Assembly (NCBI GenBank): GCA_964434195.1 | Contig: CAYSUI010000001.1 | Location: 79,833 to 143,832, forward strand | Reading direction: 5' to 3' | Length of the DNA: 64,000 nucleotides | From: an uncultured Candidatus Saccharibacteria bacterium | GTDB lineage: Bacteria; Patescibacteriota; Doudnabacteria; UBA920 | Part shown: positions 5,708-16,498 of the stretch, piece by piece | Layout: the number at the start of each line of letters is the position of its first letter | How positions within the stretch are numbered: the stretch's first letter is position 1 | Program-made: the position numbers and the translations under genes | The notes under the pieces: model-generated | What the model saw: the letters and a program-made list of their open reading frames with translations, nothing else | What the model was told of the DNA's origin: nothing | Databases searched by the model: none

Positions 5708-7993
5708 ATGTCTAAACCATTAATAATAGTAGAGTCTCCTACAAAAGCTAAAACAATTTCTAGATTCCTTTCGGGCCATTATGACGTAGAGGCGTCTTTT
5801 GGTCATGTAAGAGACCTACCTAAGAGTAAAATGGGTATAGATATAGAGCATAATTTTACCCCAACTTATACCATACCAACCAAGGCCAAGGAAACAATTA
5901 AGAATCTTAAAGCTAAAGCCAAAAATGCCTCTGAAATCATTCTCGCGACTGATGAAGACCGCGAAGGAGAAGCTATTTCTTGGCATTTAGTACAAGCGCT
6001 TGGATTAGGTGATGAAAAGGAAATAAATTCTGGAAAAGCAGACAAGCGAATAAAAAGAATAGTCTTTCATGAAATAACTAAAACTGCGATAGATCACGCG
6101 TTAAAAAACCCAAGAGAACTTGACTTAAATCTAGTAGACGCTCAGCAAGCCAGAAGAATCCTAGATAGACTTGTAGGCTATGAACTGTCTCCTTTCCTAT
6201 GGAAGAAAATTCGTTATGGTCTTTCTGCTGGCCGCGTACAAAGCGTAGCTGTGCGATTAATAGTAGAAAGAGAAAGAGAAATAGAAAAATTTGTATCGGA
6301 AGAATATTGGAGCATAGAAGCAGATCTTTCTAAAATTGGACAGAAACAAACTTTTACAGCAAAGCTCATAAAAATTGCCGACAGAAGCGTAGGCAAAATG
6401 GATATTAAAAATGAAACTGAATCGAAGGAAATTGTTAAAGATCTAGAAGGTGCTAGTTATACAGTAAAGGAAATTACTAAAAAGGAAGTAAGGAGAAATC
6501 CTTCTCCCCCATTCACAACCAGCACACTCCAACAGGAAGCTGCTAGAAAATTTGGCATGAGCGCAAAGCAAACTATGGTTATCGCTCAGCAATTATATGA
6601 AGGTATCCATTTACCTGGTGAAGGTGGTAGCACTGGTCTTATAACATATATGCGTACGGATAGTGTAAATATTGCTAAGACCGCGCTTGATCAGGCCAGG
6701 GAATTAATACTTTCAGAATTTGGTAATGACTATACTCTGACAGAACCAAGATTGTTTGCGAATAAGAGTAAGGGCGCACAAGAAGCCCATGAAGCAATTA
6801 GACCTACGGATCTTTTCAGAAAACCAGAGAGTGTAAAAGAGCATTTAGATAAAAACCAATATAAGATTTACGACCTTATCTGGAAAAGAACTATCGCATG
6901 CCAAATGACTAATGCTGTTTTGGACCATACGAGCGTAGATATTTCTGCAGATAAAGAGACTCGTAATTTTACTTTTAGAGCGAATGGTCAGGTAGTGAAA
7001 TTCGATGGATTTATTCGTGCATACACTGAAGGAACTGACGAAAAGAGTGAGGATGAGATAGAAGGAGCACTACCTGAACTCAGCGAAAATGAGAAACTCA
7101 ATCTACAAGAGCTAAAACCCTTACAACATTTTACTGAACCCCCACCAAGGTACAGTGATGCCACACTTATTAAAGCATTGGAAGCTCATGGTGTCGGCAG
7201 ACCTTCTACTTATGCACCTACATTAACTACAATTCAAGACCGAGGATACGCAGTCAAAGAAGACAAAAAGTATAGACCTACAGACGAAGGTGTACTTGTG
7301 AATGATATGTTAGTGGAAAACTTTCCAGAAATTGTGGATATTAACTTTACTTCACATATAGAAGAAGGTTTTGACGATATAGCTGAAGGAAAACAAAAGT
7401 GGGAACCAGTTATTGCAGAATTTTATACACCTTTTAAAGCTCATTTAATAGAAAAGGAAGCAACTGTTGAGAAGCAAATCAAGGAATCAACCACTCCTTG
7501 TCCACATTGTGGTAAGATGATGCTCATAAAGTTTGGTCGCATGGGTCAATTTTTAGCCTGCCCGGACCCTGAAAGCAAAATTACCCAACCTATGCCTGAA
7601 GAGGCGGCAAAAATAGCCGAACTAACAGATAAGACTAAAGGTGAGATTTGCCCTATTTGTTCTAAACCTATGGAAGTGAAACGTGGTAGATTTGGATATT
7701 TTCTTGGTTGCACAGATTACCCAAAATGCAAAGGTATTTCCAAAATTTGGAATAAACTTGGTTTTAAATGTCCTAATTGCCCTAACGTTGGCATTAACCC
7801 ACCCGGGGATATTGTAGAAAAAAAAGCGAGAGGCAGAGGTAAACCATTTTATGCATGTACTAAATACCCTGAATGTACGCTTATAATGAATAAGAAACCT
7901 GAAAGTGTAACCGAACTTCAGGAGTTATATGAGAATTGGAAGACAAATCCCCCAAAAACCAAAAAAAACTATAAGAAAAAAACATCCGCGTAA
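5708..7993 (+). CDS. topA: DNA topoisomerase I
   Basis: N-terminal Toprim domain (IVESPTKAKTI...GHVRDLP), topoisomerase IA core, and C-terminal array of four C4 zinc ribbons (CPHCG, CPICS, CPNC, CTKYPEC). Confidence 0.95.
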   Translation: MSKPLIIVESPTKAKTISRFLSGHYDVEASFGHVRDLPKSKMGIDIEHNFTPTYTIPTKAKETIKNLKAKAKNASEIILATDEDREGEAISWHLVQALGLGDEKEINSGKADKRIKRIVFHEITKTAIDHALKNPRELDLNLVDAQQARRILDRLVGYELSPFLWKKIRYGLSAGRVQSVAVRLIVEREREIEKFVSEEYWSIEADLSKIGQKQTFTAKLIKIADRSVGKMDIKNETESKEIVKDLEGASYTVKEITKKEVRRNPSPPFTTSTLQQEAARKFGMSAKQTMVIAQQLYEGIHLPGEGGSTGLITYMRTDSVNIAKTALDQARELILSEFGNDYTLTEPRLFANKSKGAQEAHEAIRPTDLFRKPESVKEHLDKNQYKIYDLIWKRTIACQMTNAVLDHTSVDISADKETRNFTFRANGQVVKFDGFIRAYTEGTDEKSEDEIEGALPELSENEKLNLQELKPLQHFTEPPPRYSDATLIKALEAHGVGRPSTYAPTLTTIQDRGYAVKEDKKYRPTDEGVLVNDMLVENFPEIVDINFTSHIEEGFDDIAEGKQKWEPVIAEFYTPFKAHLIEKEATVEKQIKESTTPCPHCGKMMLIKFGRMGQFLACPDPESKITQPMPEEAAKIAELTDKTKGEICPICSKPMEVKRGRFGYFLGCTDYPKCKGISKIWNKLGFKCPNCPNVGINPPGDIVEKKARGRGKPFYACTKYPECTLIMNKKPESVTELQELYENWKTNPPKTKKNYKKKTSA

Positions 7994-8006
7994 TCGGATG
8001 TTTTTT
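7981..8006. terminator. bidirectional terminator between convergent topA and NDH-2 gene
   Basis: Hairpin catccg-cgtaat-cggatg (7983-8000) followed by TTTTTT. Overlaps the stops of both genes. Confidence 0.5.
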
Positions 8007-9231
8007 AATCGTTTCTGGAAAATATTTCATATTCGAATATTGTGAGCATTGCAGCCCTCCACCAACCAAGGAAGTCTTTAAAAAACCAAAAATGAGCACA
8101 CTGTTTTGCAAAATAAGCCAACCTACCTGTTACATACCAATTACCATGCTTCATGATCGCCCACTGCCCCCCGATCATTATGACGTACCCATGAGGGGGG
8201 CAATTATATGCTGGGGGTTTTTGATTTTTTAACAGTAGTGGAAATATTCTTCCTAGGTATTCTGCATGTCTTATTGCAGACTGCGCAGTGGGAGGACTAA
8301 CGATACCATCTTGAGAGGTGAAGCAACTATTATCACCAAGCACGTAGGCATTTGAATAATCTTTAATCTGAAAATATTCATTAACTTTTATACGCCCCTT
8401 AGGGTCAATCTCTGTTTTTTGCACTATTGGAACTTGAGTAGACTTAACCCCGGCTGCCCAAATGAGAACATCATAGGTCTCTCGTTCACCATTTTTAAGC
8501 TCAAAGATACCAGGATCCACTTTAGAAATCAGACTCATTAAGGAAATCCTAACCCCCAGATCTCTCAATCTTTCACTAGCGTCTCTGCTGAGCCTAGAAT
8601 CTAACCCAGGAATGAGCTCGCTGGCACCCTCGATAACCTGAATTTCAATTTTCTCTCTTGGAAAGCCATTTTTCCATGCAACATGATTAACTAGCTTTAC
8701 CAACTCGCCAGCGACCTCAACACCAGTATACCCACCCCCTGCCACTACAATCCTAACCAGCTTCTTCTTTACATCGCTTCTACCTCTTTGGACTGAAAAT
8801 TCCACTGCGTTTTTTATTCGTAACGCATCTTGGAAGGTTTTAAGAGGTAAAGCATTTTCTTTTGCTCCTGCAATTCCAAAGTATTCACTTTCTGAACCTA
8901 GAGCTAGGAAAATATGCTCATATTCAATACTCTTAGATTGCATACTTACTGTTTTCTTTTGTAAGTCTATGCTCTTAACCTCAGCTTCTATAAAATTTAC
9001 ACCTAAATTCTTAAGTACTTTTGAGAGACTAAACGAGACACTTTTTTTAAGATCTTCCTGTGTAACTAATTCTTCTTCGGCTGTGGCTACTTCGTATATT
9101 TCCGGTGTAAACAAAAAAAATTCGGTTCTGTTAACCAAAGTTATATCACTCCCCTTAAAAAACCTGGCTAGTCTTTTAGCCAGAGTAAGACCCGCAAAGC
9201 CCCCACCTATTATTAAATATTTGGTTTTCAT
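8005..9231 (-). CDS. type II NADH dehydrogenase-like FAD-dependent pyridine nucleotide-disulfide oxidoreductase
   Basis: Two dinucleotide-binding motifs: IIGGGFAGLTLA at the N-terminus and IVVAGGGYTGVEVAGE in the middle. NDH-2-like length of 408 aa. Confidence 0.75.
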   Translation of the reverse strand: MKTKYLIIGGGFAGLTLAKRLARFFKGSDITLVNRTEFFLFTPEIYEVATAEEELVTQEDLKKSVSFSLSKVLKNLGVNFIEAEVKSIDLQKKTVSMQSKSIEYEHIFLALGSESEYFGIAGAKENALPLKTFQDALRIKNAVEFSVQRGRSDVKKKLVRIVVAGGGYTGVEVAGELVKLVNHVAWKNGFPREKIEIQVIEGASELIPGLDSRLSRDASERLRDLGVRISLMSLISKVDPGIFELKNGERETYDVLIWAAGVKSTQVPIVQKTEIDPKGRIKVNEYFQIKDYSNAYVLGDNSCFTSQDGIVSPPTAQSAIRHAEYLGRIFPLLLKNQKPPAYNCPPHGYVIMIGGQWAIMKHGNWYVTGRLAYFAKQCAHFWFFKDFLGWWRAAMLTIFEYEIFSRND

Positions 9232-9259
9232 AGGTATTACTATATCTCCGAGAATAGGC

Positions 9260-9817
9260 TTACTTTAAACCTGATTCTGTTAAAGAGTGCCTACCTCCAG
9301 TGACACTTCCTGTTTTGTCGCTTACACAGAAAGTGATCGTATATTTATCGGTAGCTGAAGAGGTATAGACATAATCGTTCCAAGTAAAACTACCATTTGC
9401 CTCGCTACAACGCGAACCTGCTGGTAGAGAACCGTCATCTGCTGGCTTTGGAGAAGGCTGAAATTGAGCCAAATAGACTGTACCAGAGGCTACAGAGGTT
9501 AGACCTATACCACCGTTTGGAGAAACTCCATTACTTGTCCCGCAAGTTGTTGCCGTACCACTATATAAAGAAAGGCTACCACTTAATACAATGGGACCGG
9601 TTTGTGGAAAACCATTACACGTATTTTGATATAACGACAAAGCACTAGCTAGTTGAGTTACATCGCTTAATCTCTTTGCATTCCTGGCTTTAGTTCTCGA
9701 ATTCGAAAGCGCAACCAATACGACAGATGCGAGCAGGCCAATAATGGCAATAACTACTAAGAGTTCTATAAGTGTAAAACCTTTTGTGGAAAAATTTTGT
9801 TTCTTTAGACCTTGCAT
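9260..9817 (-). CDS. type IV pilin-like protein (prepilin with class III signal peptide)
   Basis: N-terminus KGFTLIELLVVIAIIGLLASVV is the canonical prepilin cleavage/methylation motif (G|FTLIE). Confidence 0.85.
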   Translation of the reverse strand: MQGLKKQNFSTKGFTLIELLVVIAIIGLLASVVLVALSNSRTKARNAKRLSDVTQLASALSLYQNTCNGFPQTGPIVLSGSLSLYSGTATTCGTSNGVSPNGGIGLTSVASGTVYLAQFQPSPKPADDGSLPAGSRCSEANGSFTWNDYVYTSSATDKYTITFCVSDKTGSVTGGRHSLTESGLK

Positions 9818-9940
9818 TCCATGATTTAAGACCGTTTTGTAATTATTTTAATTATAGCATACTTGCAATAATATCTAATTTATAATAATTTATAGACCTT
9901 TGTTGGTCACCTAACCAAATAGCCTGAGGAGGTAAGCAAA

Positions 9941-10573
9941 ATGAGTATGGGTTTTACGTTGCAGCAAGAACTTACACTGAAACATACTACTCGCCTTTCT
10001 GCCAAACTTCGTGCGGAAGTTGAGCAGGTTTTGAGTTTGCGACTTGGAATGCTTGTGGATGTGTGGCGAGAATACCGCTATGAACCAAGAGCAATTTGCC
10101 CGGGCTGTAGCCACCCGCTTACATTGGCTCAGATTGAAGCGGGTTTCTCTGATAGCCCCACAAACCATGCAGTGAAGTGTCCGTTGTGCAGCAGTCCGTT
10201 TTATGCGGAGCTGGTAAGCAAAACGAAGACCGGGCACATTGTAGCTGGGCATTATTATTGCAAACAGCAGACACTGCATGAGATTCGGGAACATTACGCA
10301 AAATCCCCTTCCGACTTTGAAGCAAAGATGAAGGATATATATCTATCTGCGCTTCGGCATTTTGGGAGTTTGAAAACCGCTTTTCGCCAGCTTGGTGTAA
10401 AGTATGGTTTTGCCGAAACCCCCAAATGGAAAGAAGTTGCTAGGGAATTTGTAGGGAAATTACCGGATACGGTTATCGCCAAAGAGCTGGAAGTACCGGC
10501 GAGAATTATTCGGCGGTTCCGTAACAGCCTTGGGGTTTCAAGGTTTGTGAAAAGCGATGCGCTTGAGAGTTAA
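9941..10573 (+). CDS. hypothetical protein with Zn-ribbon (CPGC..CPLC) and C-terminal HTH-like segment; higher GC
   Basis: 210-aa ORF. Two CxxC pairs. C-terminus KLPDTVIAKELEVPARIIRRFRNSLGV resembles an HTH. GC clearly above neighbours by eye. Confidence 0.5.
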   Translation: MSMGFTLQQELTLKHTTRLSAKLRAEVEQVLSLRLGMLVDVWREYRYEPRAICPGCSHPLTLAQIEAGFSDSPTNHAVKCPLCSSPFYAELVSKTKTGHIVAGHYYCKQQTLHEIREHYAKSPSDFEAKMKDIYLSALRHFGSLKTAFRQLGVKYGFAETPKWKEVAREFVGKLPDTVIAKELEVPARIIRRFRNSLGVSRFVKSDALES

Positions 10574-10706
10574 TACTCTCTTTTTTAATATAAACTTAAT
10601 ACTCAGATGTTAAATTAAAATGAGTTTATTGTTGACATTTTTCGATTTTTTATGTATAGTAATTGATAAAATTTTTTCAATTTTTGTACAGTGTAACGGA
10701 GGTGTT

Positions 10707-11261
10707 ATGAAACCGAAAGAAATTTTGCCTTCTGGTAAGTACGGTGTAATTTTACCTGGAAGCGACTTGATCCCCAATGAGAGTGACCCAGATTTTCCCC
10801 ACATCCGAGAAGAGCTCAGGAAGAGAGGCATCATATGGTATGAACGAGCATTTGGAAGGAGTACAGTTTTCTGGTTCTTAGGTGAAGAGGCGTTAAAGTT
10901 ACCTGAGGATCCTGAAGGCGTGAATGAAGGAAATCAGTATCTGCAATATCTTCCAGTCTCTGATGACTGTGGAGGTCATGGAATTGGAAGCTTGGATGAT
11001 TTTCTGGCAGCGAACCCGGGTGAGGATCTTAAGTCTCCGAAATACGGTGAATTATTGGTGCTTGGTAAATGCTATTGTTATATGGAACTAATAGCATATG
11101 CTCCATTCAGAAATGCTGTTACTAAAACAGTTCCACTAAACGGCAACTGTGGTTTCTGTAACGCAAGCATAAGAGCTTCCTTAGTTTACGAAGAAGACAA
11201 GACCAGTCCTTATGGCTGGAAAATAACTGTGGAAAATTTCACTGCAACTCCGCGAAAATAA
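10707..11261 (+). CDS. hypothetical protein
   Basis: ORF with ATG at 10707 preceded by GGAGG. The track's 10620 start adds an unlikely hydrophobic leader. No motif recognised. Confidence 0.45.
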   Translation: MKPKEILPSGKYGVILPGSDLIPNESDPDFPHIREELRKRGIIWYERAFGRSTVFWFLGEEALKLPEDPEGVNEGNQYLQYLPVSDDCGGHGIGSLDDFLAANPGEDLKSPKYGELLVLGKCYCYMELIAYAPFRNAVTKTVPLNGNCGFCNASIRASLVYEEDKTSPYGWKITVENFTATPRK

Positions 11262-11320
11262 TTTTCGCGATTTTTTTATTTTGACCAAAATGAAAACCTC
11301 CGGGCAGGAGACTTTCTTTT

Positions 11321-11640
11321 TGCTGGGCTGAGTGGGTGTGCTATAAATCTCCCTTGGAGCCCTACCCAAGGGAAGTTTTGGCACAGGCAAAGCCAGATGC
11401 CAAAACTAGTTCGATCCCCTTTCCTACATCAACCAAAAAGAAAACCTCCGATGCAGGAGGCTTTCTTTTTGGTGGTCTGCTATATATGGGGCTAGCGTCG
11501 CCCCCTCCACCGGGCTAAGCCCTAAGTGGAGCCACCCCTTCTCGCACCCTGGGTGCTAATATTATTTAAATCCCTAACTTACTTCACCAATAATAAAACC
11601 TCCTGCACCGGAGGTTTTATTATTGGTGGGCTGAATAGGT
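11321..11640. repeat. array of three tRNA-Lys 3'-end-like core repeats (att-like scars), each with a flanking hairpin
   Basis: tgctgggctgagtgggt (11321-11337), tggtggtctgc (11470-11480) and tggtgggctgaataggt (11624-11640) resemble the last 17 nt of tRNA-Lys (tggtgggttcggtgggg). Each is preceded by an aaaacctcc...ggagg hairpin. The same module is seen at 16275-16422. Confidence 0.5.
11588..11630. repeat. 43-nt direct repeat, left copy; identical to 16387-16429
   Basis: caataataaaacctcctgcaccggaggttttattattggtggg occurs identically 4799 bp downstream abutting tRNA-Lys. Contains a perfect hairpin aaaacctcc-tgcacc-ggaggtttt. Confidence 0.8.
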
Positions 11641-11786
11641 CATTACTCGAATACGTACGCAATGCGACGGAAAAACTAACAAAAACTCAAAGGTTTGCTT
11701 GGGAAAATTGCTATACGCAATTAATTACAGCGAGGTTAATAAAAGACACGATTCCGGTTGCTGTATAAGTGTTGAGTTCAAACTTT

Positions 11787-13247
11787 TTATAAAATATTAG
11801 ACGACATGGGTGCTGGTGCTGTAAACGGCTGCTTCCTCGGTAATGCGAGGCAAAATACTGTGGAAATCAAGATTATGAATAATGATGCCCCAACGGTCCA
11901 TAATGTGCTATTAGCTATGTTACCGTAAATGAATAATGGTATACCAATTAAGAAAGATACTAATACACCCCAAAACACGCCCTTTTCACTTAACTTATCC
12001 CAATACAAGCTTAAAACTGTTGGTACAACCACACATGCGGCTATGGTGTTGAATACCCACCATAGCTGTTTCAGTCCAAAATTAGGGATATAAACGGCTG
12101 CGAGAGCAACTAGTAGACCTAAGATAGTTACACCAAACATAGAATAGCGCGCTGCGCGAATAGCTCCTTTATCGTCTTTAGATTTAACCACATCTGTTAC
12201 CCAGAGAGAGCCAATAGCAGATAGTCCTGCGTCTAAAGCAGACGTTAGACCGGCTAATAGCATAACCACGAACAGCGATACCGCCCAAAGTGGCAAAAGC
12301 GTTGCAACAACCTGCACTCCCACCATTGAAGCGTCAATTCCAGTTGGCAGACTTATATGTAGGTTAGGGTTGGCCGCTAAAAATCCTAGGGTCGACAAAC
12401 CTATCGGCACAAGACCAAAAAGAATTGAGCCAAAGATAAATGCTTTTACTACTTTACCCTCTTTAATAGCAAACGCACGTTGCCAGTTAGACTGGTCGGA
12501 AATTGAGCCGGCCAGTAAACCAATGGAAGTAACTATGCCAAAAGAAAATGCCACACCGGGGTCAAATATGTTGCCAATGTTTTGTATACCGTGAAAACCA
12601 GCGCTAATGGCGCTAAAGCCGCCCGCCGCACTCCAAGCCAAGGGTAAAATAATAATACCTATAAGATAAATTAACCCTAACTGCACAAAGTCCGTAATTA
12701 TAGAGGCTTGAAATCCTGAAATTAAAGTATAAATTAATACGATACCGGCTAAAATTGGCATTATGGTCGTAAGGGGTATGCCAGTAAGTAAAGAAAGTAA
12801 ACTACCGCCAGCAAACAGCTGAACGACTACTGCCATTAGTTGATAGAAGAGATAGGGAAACAAAAATACTTTGTGCACTCGGTCGCTTTCGAGTCGATAT
12901 TTAATATATTGGGTAAATGTATACCCTTGTGGCAGTCGCGCGCGTATTCGGGGAGCAAAAATAGCGAAAATCAGCAAAGCTAAAATATTTGGTAATGTAA
13001 ACCAAAAGATGCCGGCCAAGCCCTGCTGGTATGCGACCTGCACAGAAACAAATAACGCCGGTGCCCATATCCAAGAAGAGGCAATGCTAAAACCTCCTAA
13101 GACCCATCCCACTTTTCTATTAGCTAGTAAAAAACCTTCTTTTGTTTGCCAGTTTTGTCTTTTTGAAAAATAGTAAGTGAACCAAGTAATAATTATGGCA
13201 AAGAACGTTAGAAACCAATAGCCGGTTGCTTGTGATACAAAGCCCAT
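11787..13247 (-). CDS. sodium:solute symporter family transporter
   Basis: 486-aa polytopic membrane protein with about 13 TM helices. N-terminal region is typical of the SSS family. Higher GC than the flanking core genes. Confidence 0.6.
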   Translation of the reverse strand: MGFVSQATGYWFLTFFAIIITWFTYYFSKRQNWQTKEGFLLANRKVGWVLGGFSIASSWIWAPALFVSVQVAYQQGLAGIFWFTLPNILALLIFAIFAPRIRARLPQGYTFTQYIKYRLESDRVHKVFLFPYLFYQLMAVVVQLFAGGSLLSLLTGIPLTTIMPILAGIVLIYTLISGFQASIITDFVQLGLIYLIGIIILPLAWSAAGGFSAISAGFHGIQNIGNIFDPGVAFSFGIVTSIGLLAGSISDQSNWQRAFAIKEGKVVKAFIFGSILFGLVPIGLSTLGFLAANPNLHISLPTGIDASMVGVQVVATLLPLWAVSLFVVMLLAGLTSALDAGLSAIGSLWVTDVVKSKDDKGAIRAARYSMFGVTILGLLVALAAVYIPNFGLKQLWWVFNTIAACVVVPTVLSLYWDKLSEKGVFWGVLVSFLIGIPLFIYGNIANSTLWTVGASLFIILISTVFCLALPRKQPFTAPAPMSSNIL

Positions 13248-13336
13248 ATAAATAATTTAAGGTTGATTTATTAAGGCTTATTCTATATACTATTGAGTGA
13301 GTGGCAAATACCACCACTTTTATATAATTTTATGCT

Positions 13337-14086
13337 ATGTACAGAGAAATACTTGAAGAATTAGGACTATCCCCTAACGAAGCCAAAATATACGAGGGTC
13401 TGCTTGATATTGGTATGGCCAGTGTCCCGGAAATCTCATTAAAAATTGGAGTACACAAACGGAATGTGTACGATATTATTCCCAAACTTTTAAAAAAGGG
13501 GTTAATTTACCAAATCGCAGATACGAAAGAAAATAAGTATGCACCATTAGAACCGGCTAAGTTATCGGATTTAATTTGGGAGAAGGAAGCAAAGTTAAAA
13601 AGTATTTTACCCGCACTAAAAAGACAATTTAAAAAAACCGCAACCGGTGAGGCGGTTTATATTTATAAAGGCGTAGAGGGTTTTAAGAACTACTTGAGGG
13701 ACATTTTGGAAGTCGGTGAAGATGTTTATTTCATAGGAGCGAAGGGCGGTTGGTTTGATAAGGATTTACAGACTTTTATAAAAAAGTTCTTAAGGCAAGC
13801 AAAAGAAAAGAAAATTAAGTATTATCATATATTCGATGCGGAAGTTAAGAACCTCGCGCCAGATTTACCAACAGCACTTGGTAAGCCGTATAGGTTTTTG
13901 CCGCCCGGGTATTCAACGACTGGCGCTATAGATATTTTTGGCGACCATATTGTTACTTTTTCTGGACTTACTCTGAAAAATATTACCGATGACATTACAT
14001 TGGTCGTTATTATAAATAAAGAGCTTGCAGATTGTTACCGCACTTGGTTTCGCTTTATGTGGGACCATTGCAAAGTGGAAAAATAA
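13337..14086 (+). CDS. TrmB-family transcriptional regulator
   Basis: N-terminal winged HTH (LGLSPNEAKIYEGLLDIGMASVPEISLKIGVHKRNVYDIIPKLLKKGLI) typical of TrmB sugar-responsive regulators, plus a C-terminal effector-like domain. Confidence 0.65.
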   Translation: MYREILEELGLSPNEAKIYEGLLDIGMASVPEISLKIGVHKRNVYDIIPKLLKKGLIYQIADTKENKYAPLEPAKLSDLIWEKEAKLKSILPALKRQFKKTATGEAVYIYKGVEGFKNYLRDILEVGEDVYFIGAKGGWFDKDLQTFIKKFLRQAKEKKIKYYHIFDAEVKNLAPDLPTALGKPYRFLPPGYSTTGAIDIFGDHIVTFSGLTLKNITDDITLVVIINKELADCYRTWFRFMWDHCKVEK

Positions 14087-14087
14087 G

Positions 14088-14876
14088 CTAGACCCTTGAA
14101 GGTCGAAGTTTTTGTACAGGTTTTTTCTTGGACGACCCGATACTTTTTTTGGGTTTCTTGGGAGTAACTAAGCTTTTTTGGCAATCAAATGACTGCACCC
14201 AAACATTTGGAATCCTTTGAAAAGTTTCTTTTATTAGGGCAATATTTTCTGCTTCGTTGTTATTTATGACAAGCAAAATACCATGTGTTGCGTAGTAACC
14301 TTTCATGTACCTTTCCATGCTGGAGTATGAGGGCGAAGCAGTAAGGACTAGACCTTTCAGGTCGGAATTGGAAGTTAACTTAACTTCAACGATTACCGGA
14401 CCGACGAAACCGTACCTTACAAAAAAATCAGTCTTTTTTCCGTCTAGTAACTCTGGCTCACGCATAACCTCAACCTGGAAACCACGCTTAAGTAAAATAT
14501 TCTCTGCTTGTGCTTTTAGTGTTTTTTGAACTAATTTTTCATACTCTTGCCGTTTCGCTGCATACACTTTTTCTCCCAGAATCAGGTCATAAGCACCTTC
14601 TCCTTCAATCCACCGCCTTAGGTCTGTCTCTAAAGCATCCTGCAAATGACGGAACAAGTCGTCAGAGGTAACAATCTTTTTATCGTCGTACTCCCGTGCA
14701 TTATTGTATCTTTTTACCGCTTCGGATATATTTCGAGGCTTCCCAAGATACGCTAAATAAGAACGACGCAGGTTTACCATACGCCCCGCGAGCCAATTTG
14801 CACCTTGTCGGTCTTTCATCTCGGCTATCTTAGCTTCTAATAAGCCCAAGGGCGTATATGAGCGTTTTTCCTTCAA
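14088..14876 (-). CDS. hypothetical protein occupying the position of the missing recombinase catalytic domain
   Basis: 262-aa ORF with a basic K-rich C-terminal tail. A possible PD-(D/E)xK-like segment (DFFVRYGFVGPVIVEVK) is speculative. Confidence 0.4.
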   Translation of the reverse strand: MKEKRSYTPLGLLEAKIAEMKDRQGANWLAGRMVNLRRSYLAYLGKPRNISEAVKRYNNAREYDDKKIVTSDDLFRHLQDALETDLRRWIEGEGAYDLILGEKVYAAKRQEYEKLVQKTLKAQAENILLKRGFQVEVMREPELLDGKKTDFFVRYGFVGPVIVEVKLTSNSDLKGLVLTASPSYSSMERYMKGYYATHGILLVINNNEAENIALIKETFQRIPNVWVQSFDCQKSLVTPKKPKKSIGSSKKKPVQKLRPSRV

Positions 14877-16285
14877 GTTATCGAAATATGAATAAACAAT
14901 CTCCCAAAGGTAGGAAGCGTATGCTTGAGGGCGTTCTTTCGAGCGTTGCAGAGTTTTTCTCTTTGCAAAGTGGAGAAAAAGTAAAAACAGGCATGAAGCA
15001 AAAACTTAAAGAAGGCCTTTGGCCGACTGGAGCATCGTACGGATACAAGAACGTGCGAGAAAAATTATCTACTGGTAAAGTGCGTTCTTGGGTGGAAATA
15101 AATTGGGAAGAAGCTAAATGGGTAATTCGAGCTTTTGAATTATTCGCTACGGGTAATTATTCCACCATATCTCTCGCCCAAATACTTCGCCAGGAAGGGT
15201 TTCCAGTAAGAAAATATAAGAGAGGGAATGACAAATTACATGCAAGCTTTATCGAAAGGCTTTTACGCAATAAGTTTTTTATAGGCATTATCGAATGGGA
15301 CGGCCTTGTTAATCCCAATGGTAAACATGAGCTCTTTTTAGACCGTCAACTTTTCGACAAAGTACAAAGTATCTTAGATATGCGTCTAGGTGGAGGTAGC
15401 AGAAAGCGTAAGCATTTTTCTATACTTAAAGGCCCTGCTTTCTGCCAAGAGTGCAATAGCAGGATTACAATGGATGTTAAAGAAACTACTACTCAAACTA
15501 TACGATACCTTCGTTGTTTGAAGTCACAAAATAGCGAGCGTGTTCAGTGCTCCCAGGAGTACCCCCATGAACTAGAGATTCTAAAGCAAGTAGACGAATT
15601 ACTTAGGCAAATAAAACTCAAAGATACCTTTGTTATAAAATTACGGAAACGTATTAGAAAAACGTTTGCCGATGAGCAGCAGGTTTATGAAAGAGCGCGA
15701 ATGGATATTTTGAATATAACAGAAGAAATAAAACGCAAGAAAAAGAATCTTGTTCTACAAATGATAAGCAAGGACAACGCTTCAACAGAAGACTTGGACA
15801 TATTTGCGAGCGTCCAAGACGAGCTTAATGTTGAAGAGAAGTACCTTAATGAACAACTGGAGAAAATTGAAAATAAAATTACCAGCGTGGTTAGAACGAT
15901 TCAGATTGCATTAGCTATCGCCACAGACTGCCATTATGCGTACAAAAAGGCTGAACCAGAATTGAAGGCTATGCTTATACAGACATTATTCAAAAAGATT
16001 TATATTCGGGACAAACAAATAACCCAAGTAGTTCTAAATGAACCCTTGGATTATTTGTGTCTAAAGAGGTTACAGAAAAACCCCGTATTCGATTTAACTT
16101 CAAATGGTGGGTCGAGTGGGGATCGAACCCACGACAAACGGCTTAAAAGGCCGCTGGCGCTATATACCTGGGATCCGGTAAACCGGCCCCAGGACGTGAA
16201 CAACGGCAAAGCCGCTGTTCACTCCCTAAAGGGGTATTCGCAGCGGCTTAAAATTTGTATCCAAAATTTTTACTTGGTGGGCTGA
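14858..16285 (+). pseudogene. large serine recombinase lacking the N-terminal catalytic (resolvase) domain
   Basis: Begins inside the alphaE region (VAEFFSLQSGEKVKTGMKQ) followed by the recombinase-domain motif GLWPTGASYGYKN, a Cys zinc ribbon (CQEC...C...C) and a coiled-coil. No catalytic Ser domain upstream. The 3' end reads through a tRNA-Lys fragment, so the true stop is unclear. Confidence 0.55.
16106..16156. repeat. 51-nt partial copy of the tRNA-Lys 3' half (att-like direct repeat)
   Basis: tggtgggtcgagtggggatcgaacccacgacaaacggcttaaaaggccgctg matches the 3' 51 nt of the tRNA-Lys gene at 16423-16473 with about 3 mismatches. Lies 267 bp distal to the intact tRNA. Confidence 0.75.
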
Positions 16286-16386
16286 GTGGGTTTACTATAT
16301 ATCGCCCCGAAGTGGATTCGGGGCAGAACCCAGAACCGGGAAACCCGGATTCTGGGTTCTTGTTCGATCCCTTAACTAATATCAAC
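16275..16386. repeat. att-like module: tRNA-Lys 3'-core copy, ctatatat, nested hairpins and a gttcgatccc motif
   Basis: tggtgggctgagtgggt at 16275-16291. Nested hairpin gaacccagaa-ccggg-aaa-cccgg-a-ttctgggttc. Same module architecture as 11321-11478. Confidence 0.5.
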
Positions 16387-16429
16387 CAATAATAAAACCT
16401 CCTGCACCGGAGGTTTTATTATTGGTGGG
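16387..16429. repeat. 43-nt direct repeat, right copy; overlaps the 3' end of tRNA-Lys
   Basis: Identical to 11588-11630. Its last 7 nt (tggtggg) are the CCA and acceptor end of tRNA-Lys on the minus strand. Confidence 0.8.
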
Positions 16430-16498
16430 TTCGGTGGGGATCGAACCCACGACAAACGGCTTAAAAGGCCGCTGCTCTACCGACTGAGCTACGAACCC
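16423..16498 (-). tRNA. tRNA-Lys (anticodon TTT), CCA encoded
   Basis: The reverse complement of 16423-16498 folds as a cloverleaf. Acceptor GGGTTCG/CGAACCC, anticodon stem GCGGC/GCCGT, anticodon loop CTTTTAA, T-loop TTCGATC, 3' ACCA. Confidence 0.9.

Follow-up and report, generated by a model that had tools for sequence, protein, structure and literature searches.

The locus described here occupies positions 14,088 to 16,285 of a 64,000-nt stretch of contig CAYSUI010000001.1 from an uncultured Candidatus Saccharibacteria bacterium (the whole stretch is called the window), and it holds what is left of a large serine recombinase (LSR) gene and of a STAND-type NTPase-nuclease gene. Two open reading frames (ORFs) are called there on opposite strands, one of 475 amino acids (aa) at 14858..16285 (plus strand) and one of 262 aa at 14088..14876 (minus strand), which overlap by 19 nt. 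The plus-strand ORF matched the Pfam Recombinase family PF07508 over aa 84-174 (E 1e-8; score 35.8 bits, cut-off 21.1 bits) and the zinc-ribbon family PF13408 (Zn_ribbon_recom) over aa 190-249 (E 1.3e-4, 22.7 bits, slightly below the cut-off of 25.3 bits); Resolvase, PF00239, was matched by profile positions 108-144 of 145 only, corresponding to the alphaE tail at aa 18-54 (E 0.03). The zinc-ribbon cysteines C196, C199, C220 and C231 are invariant across the LSR family alignment. The protein also aligned over aa 79-390 (E 6e-9) with 4KIS, a fragment of the Listeria phage A118 integrase lacking the catalytic domain, and this alignment points to a coiled-coil region within the ORF. A preliminary description of this DNA had read the ORF as an LSR with an alphaE helix, recombinase domain, cysteine zinc ribbon and coiled coil, and had predicted how the three Pfam families would score; the Pfam matches, the family alignment and the 4KIS match are in full agreement with it.

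That description also held that the N-terminal Ser domain of about 100 aa was absent, and comparison with intact homologues bore this out. A database search with the 475-aa ORF yielded 102 homologues, mostly from metagenomes of Patescibacteria/Candidate Phyla Radiation (CPR); the closest are 520-590 aa long, show 50-65% identity and carry PF00239, PF07508 and PF13408. The alignment of the window LSR starts at homologue residue ~117-121, with ~117 N-terminal residues gone and the catalytic Ser domain among them. A tblastn comparison of the 64-kb window with the N-terminal 140 aa of nine intact homologues found nothing beyond the alphaE stretch; the Ser domain is thus truly absent, and not hidden in another frame by a frameshift or sequencing error, and no resolvase remnant, in-frame or out-of-frame, lies in the window. 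An insertion splitting the integrase was also rejected, its 5' half being found neither beyond the neighbouring genes nor elsewhere in the window. Because the catalytic Ser domain is deleted, recombinase activity is impossible and the window LSR cannot be an active recombinase.

Both ends of the 475-aa ORF are foreign to the integrase, of which 14921..16104 represents residues ~121-525 of the intact homologues. The first 21 codons (14858-14920) are antisense STAND sequence; the minus strand across them encodes YASYLWEIVYSYFDN, a strongly conserved motif of the STAND-nuclease family, and ATG 14858 is preceded, 9 codons upstream, by a stop in the same frame. The last ~60 codons are read-through of a tRNA copy and the sequence beyond it.

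The minus-strand ORF had been taken for an orphan gene that replaced the catalytic domain, and this part of the preliminary description had to be abandoned. The ORF has 39 direct homologues; PF28130 (DUF8371) is present in the precomputed annotation of the window protein (P0103) and of nearly all of these homologues, and the family numbers more than 300 proteins. The gene is itself 5'-truncated at the same junction as the integrase, and nothing was inserted. The TTG at 14876, called as its start, encodes the Leu of a conserved NLKE motif; the homologues extend N-terminally from there with the conserved sequence ...IWAKGxEFxxYAxYVWxIVYxYFDNLKE..., and the minus frame stays open past the TTG, encoding QAYASYLWEIVYSYFDN up to nt 14927. 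STAND sequence further N-terminal than nt 14927 was found nowhere in the window. The DUF8371 reading frame measured 1,350-1,450 codons in 18 of the 20 reference-genome loci fetched, and only residues ~1072-1322 of the full-length relatives, whose lengths are 1,340-1,450 aa, match the window, which keeps the C-terminal ~20%. A search with the N-terminal 1,070 STAND residues returned over 300 proteins; a length of 1,320-1,450 aa is nearly universal among the 120 listed, many of which show NACHT, AAA_22 or NPHP3_N matches alongside PF28130. Full-length relatives give NACHT, nSTAND3 and AAA matches at the N-terminus, all sub-threshold. The P-loop NTPase module of NACHT/STAND proteins is not in the window remnant; the effector domain of PD-(D/E)xK or restriction-endonuclease (REase) fold is present, with D150, E164 and K166 conserved.

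The two truncations meet at one point. On the minus strand, robust STAND homology stops at 14921-14927; on the plus strand, the integrase is robustly matched from 14921 onwards (MLEGVLSSVAEFF, MLEGVLSS), and the ambiguous sequence assignable to either gene is at most ~7 nt (ATGCTTG). A true 45-nt overlap of both homologies was considered and rejected: the weak extensions involved (SPKG on the plus strand, RSKE on the minus strand) are each antisense to the conserved motif of the other gene, and we take them as chance antisense similarity. The 5' ends called for the 475-aa and 262-aa ORFs are artefacts of the gene caller. It might be argued that the junction itself is an assembly chimera or a sequencing error, since the source is evidently a metagenome-assembled genome and repeats (the 52-nt tRNA copy and a 45-nt hairpin) flank the region. 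This is extremely improbable. Logan contigs of three independent runs (SRR10132684, SRR13287427 and SRR10132685), spanning window positions 16145-11601 or 16145/15840-12391, were 100% identical straight across 14921, and the assembly breaks at the flanking repeats and not at the junction; because the three runs agree there, the junction is not an assembly artefact.

We consider it very probable that the locus is a deletion scar, where a dead LSR remnant became joined head-to-head with the tail of a STAND gene through ordinary decay of an island, with no new system being formed; that both remnants are non-functional stumps is held with much the same high confidence. Under this reading, a small element of the CPR/Patescibacteria type would once have stood beside tRNA-Lys, its LSR gene ending inside the tRNA-derived attachment (att) sequence. 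Left of the element, in opposite orientation, would have lain a gene of ~4.1 kb whose product, a STAND/NACHT-type NTPase, had a REase-fold domain at its C-terminus; this gene was probably carried as cargo by the island or belonged to an island next to it. A single illegitimate deletion, reaching from within the STAND gene into the integrase gene, would then have taken ~1,070 STAND codons, everything between the genes including the accessory genes, and the first ~117 integrase codons with the Ser nucleophile, leaving two 3' remnants without native promoter, start codon or essential N-terminal domain. With these gone, the element would be unable to excise and neither protein could serve its original function. 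A single deletion, rather than several steps, seems the most parsimonious course, and the remnants are presumably not expressed: no promoter-like site was found upstream of either, and the promoter/terminator scan was no richer than shuffled sequence. The LSR remnant departs from its clade at 5 of 63 positions with at least 95% conservation (median 1.7%; rank 3 of 34), which may be a mild sign of relaxed constraint, and the truncated form is a singleton cluster from one clonal population. The fossil integrase of an island proposed in the preliminary description stands, on its truncation, its domain content and the lack of any resolvase remnant.

Several observations weigh against a deletion scar of this kind. 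Both remnants are intact ORFs, free of frameshifts and stops, and a Shine-Dalgarno-like AGGA lies 5 nt before ATG 14921, and also before ATG 14858, so that translation would be possible if the DNA were transcribed. The nuclease remnant has 0 deviations among 69 positions of at least 90% conservation, with its D...ExK kept; this fits a very recent deletion, or equally it could represent continued selection, although continued use is the less parsimonious of the two. In none of 20 other genomes did a STAND gene of the DUF8371 family lie within 10 kb of an LSR of this family. The tRNA copy lies 266 nt from the intact tRNA, which requires at least one additional event, and no ancestor or sister genome in the undeleted state was found.

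The junction could instead mark one end of an inversion, or have arisen through several rearrangements, with the other gene halves surviving elsewhere in the genome. Breakpoints inside two co-oriented genes would yield exactly such head-to-head 3' remnants, an ~8.5-kb segment (7994-16498) already appears from the gene order to be inverted relative to a related genome with tRNA-Lys directly after topA, and the search covered 64 kb of the 152-kb contig. We regard this as unlikely, because neither 5' half is present in the window, either in the 15 kb to the left or in the 48 kb to the right, the best 120 of 310 matches include no STAND N-terminal fragment on a contig of 152,025 nt, and the element's accessory genes are also lost, which an inversion leaves unexplained.

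The preliminary description left room for a DNA-binding remnant retained in another role, and in its most explicit form an integrase without a catalytic domain, reduced to recombinase domain, zinc-ribbon domain and coiled coil (RD-ZD-CC), would be expressed, for example from ATG 14921, and would bind the tRNA-Lys att sites, blocking related elements or holding the island. The remnant is the part of the A118 integrase that by itself binds att half-sites (the 4KIS match), its ORF is intact for ~400 codons with the zinc-ribbon cysteines kept, the AGGA precedes ATG 14921, and the related locus L003 likewise has an intact ORF without the Ser region. The idea did not gain support, and we think it quite doubtful: there is no conserved clade of such derivatives beyond the singleton, truncated members of the family are scattered, with full-length enzymes as their nearest neighbours and a lesion of their own in each case, no native start or promoter-like site is present, highly conserved positions show the mild excess of changes given above, and the 5' end was made by a deletion that also wrecked an unrelated gene. 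A further version, where the RD-ZD-CC remnant from ATG 14921 is a dead att-binding guard of the tRNA-Lys hotspot and the freed nuclease domain is perhaps a stand-alone effector, is rated as more improbable still.

Table 1. Features of the locus and its surroundings, with the tRNA-abutting integrase loci of relatives (window coordinates unless a locus is named).
Feature	Position	Strand	Basis
TrmB-family regulator, host-side flank	13337..14086	+	Pfam, synteny
Remaining 3' part (~280 codons) of a STAND/NACHT-type NTPase gene of ~1,350 codons	14088..14927	-	Homologue alignments, open frame
Fortuitous 5' extension of the 475-aa ORF, MSVFPSSYRNMNKQSPKGRKR	14858..14920	+	Antisense of STAND-gene remnant, alignments
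Head-to-head junction of two 5'-truncated genes, probable deletion breakpoint	14919..14927		Homology limits
LSR gene 3' remnant (alphaE end, recombinase domain, probable zinc ribbon and coiled coil, C-terminal region)	14921..16104	+	Pfam, homologue alignments, 4KIS
52-nt copy of the tRNA-Lys(UUU) 3' part, CCA end to anticodon stem	16105..16156	-	Repeat search, cmscan
266-nt spacer from tRNA copy to intact tRNA, with repeat copy u4 (16275-16430) and terminator-like hairpin (16385-16427)	16157..16422		Repeat comparison
Intact tRNA-Lys(UUU), presumed integration target	16423..16498	-	ARAGORN; Rfam tRNA 75.8 bits
Three more ~150-nt repeat copies in tandem (u1, u2, partial u3)	11284..11640		Repeat comparison
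tRNA-abutting LSR loci	L001:8001-9350, L002:8001-9623, L003:8001-9200, L028:10001-11716		tRNA and ORF comparison

In intact relatives the integrase ORF runs antisense into a complete tRNA, with the geometry seen in the window; the tRNA met is tRNA-Ala(UGC) in L001, L002 and L003 and tRNA-Lys(UUU) in L028, and the C-terminal tails of most close LSR homologues are translated tRNA antisense. From these comparisons the CPR/Patescibacteria LSR clade appears to target tRNA genes. Mageeney et al. 2020 (PMC7192596) give tRNA genes as the target of only 4.9% of serine integrases and describe this use as rare, not reported before and still in need of experimental proof. The intact related elements are small, with five to seven short co-oriented genes upstream of the integrase, and none of the accessory genes of L001-L003 occurs in the window. 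No long tRNA direct repeats that would mark their far ends were found at the intact elements. At the far end of one intact integrase element, a BsuBI/PstI-type restriction-modification pair lies in opposite orientation (L002:2713-4720), which suggests that small CPR elements carry defence cargo. Damage was seen among the relatives as well: in the integrase at L001:7638-9254 a single in-frame stop replaces a conserved Trp, and that at L003:7809-9191 is 5'-truncated, with residues 1-81 lost. Such independent lesions are the pattern expected of neutral decay, which is usual after fixation. An alternative genetic code as the cause of the truncated calls found no support, the L001 lesion being a single Trp-to-stop change and the window lesion a true absence.

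The 3' end of the integrase abuts the partial tRNA copy and the ORF reads through it. The preliminary description had reported a tRNA-Lys fragment of 51 nt at this point; the fragment is real and is read into, and its length is 52 nt. The copy matches the intact tRNA-Lys(UUU) at 16423-16498 over 39 nt exactly and with 94% identity overall (0 of 100 shuffles matched), its acceptor-stem sequence differs from that of the host tRNA, and cmscan scored 16108-16169 as a tRNA without a D-arm (33.3 bits). It may be either an att-site remnant or a decayed tRNA copy.

On the left the foreign DNA can be delimited by synteny. A relative at 75% nucleotide identity shares only an SSF transporter gene and the TrmB gene, and similarity ends at ~14083, one codon before the TrmB stop; foreign DNA therefore starts at ~14084-14088 and spans ~14084-16422. 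A composition profile gave no foreign-DNA signal. A metagenome scan with the right-flank protein found no island-free or intact sister genome, and exact-protein look-ups returned only clonal copies and the one relative sharing solely SSF-TrmB. The related genome mentioned in connection with inversion (L028:11584-16805; topA 70% identical in aa) has the order DprA, PGA_cap, topA and tRNA-Lys, and an integrase element and the tRNA converge there. The window has other genes after topA (5708-7993, plus strand), and its tRNA-Lys is 8.4 kb away on the opposite strand.

The window LSR shares its recombinase domain, probable four-Cys zinc ribbon, putative coiled coil and alphaE tail with the A118 integrase (PDB 4KIS/5UDO), phiC31 Int and Bxb1 Int, and its full-length relatives share the complete three-domain architecture of large serine recombinases. 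The window copy differs from these integrases in having no Ser domain, and its clade occurs in CPR/Patescibacteria, where it abuts tRNA genes. The locus also resembles degenerate tRNA-adjacent islands in the truncated integrase, the partial tRNA repeat, the lost accessory genes and the independent lesions in relatives; unlike in those islands, the integrase is of the serine and not the tyrosine type, and the same deletion would have cut a neighbouring defence-type gene, giving rise to misleading overlapping divergent ORFs. The full-length STAND relatives resemble the bNACHT/STAND antiphage proteins in being single proteins of ~1,350 aa with an N-terminal P-loop/NACHT-like region and a REase-fold domain; Kibby et al. 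(bioRxiv 10.1101/2022.07.19.500537) list REase-fold effectors in the bNACHT proteins, in most cases at the N-terminus and occasionally at the C-terminus. By comparison the window keeps only the nuclease end, and the defence role of its full-length relatives is putative. These relatives matched the NCBIfam antiphage families HyoA (at the C-terminus) and EruA (at the N-terminus) weakly, with 25-35 bits against family cut-offs of 1,000-1,200. PADLOC gave no meaningful match for either remnant and only weak P-loop matches for the full-length STAND proteins, and there is no entry for the DUF8371 STAND-NTPase family in PADLOC 2.0. A literature search on HyoA, and on serine recombinases in Saccharibacteria, found nothing relevant.

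The locus is a caution for annotators: the deposited proteins of 475 aa and 253 aa are stumps, one from the 3' end of an integrase gene (530 aa) and the other from that of an NTPase-nuclease gene (1,350 aa), and the fortuitous start of each lies in the antisense of the other. As a finding this is an ordinary immobilised island fossil, and the apparently tRNA-targeting LSR clade is worth more. It offers the lead that serine integrase genes of CPR/Patescibacteria regularly end inside tRNA-Ala or tRNA-Lys genes. A second lead is the widespread, uncatalogued family of ~1,350-aa STAND NTPase-REase proteins (DUF8371), which moves between phyla and is often found just downstream of tRNA genes; we regard it as a candidate uncharacterised defence gene.

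Proteins of the DUF8371 STAND-NTPase family, at 40-70% identity, were seen in Saccharibacteria and other Patescibacteria, Acidobacteriota, Dormibacterota, Planctomycetota, Nitrospirae and Gammaproteobacteria; the loci on record are L008:6737-10807, L009:6716-11077, L020:6710-10804 and 15 further ones (L010-L027). A co-oriented tRNA lies 0.3-3 kb upstream of the STAND gene in 6 of 20 loci. A second copy of the STAND nuclease in Acidoferrales (L007:8001-8750, equal to L023:9866-10774) is independently 5'-truncated, at residue ~1060 and so at nearly the point where the window copy begins, and is adjoined by genes for a tyrosine integrase, a NikA-like protein and a transposase.

The ~150-nt repeats beside the intact tRNA and farther left (Table 1) include an exact 45-nt match that covers a hairpin and the tRNA 3' end (11586-11630 = 16386-16430). 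Rfam gave no match for them. They may be scars that earlier integrations left at this hotspot, layered through repeated events, or they may represent a small RNA family. Each repeat opens with the tRNA-3'-end-like TGGTGGGCTGAGTGGG, followed by two hairpins, the conserved GTTCGATCCC..ATCAACCA and a long terminator-like hairpin; the hairpin sequences diverge while their pairing is kept, 13 pairs having changed on both sides among 3 copies.

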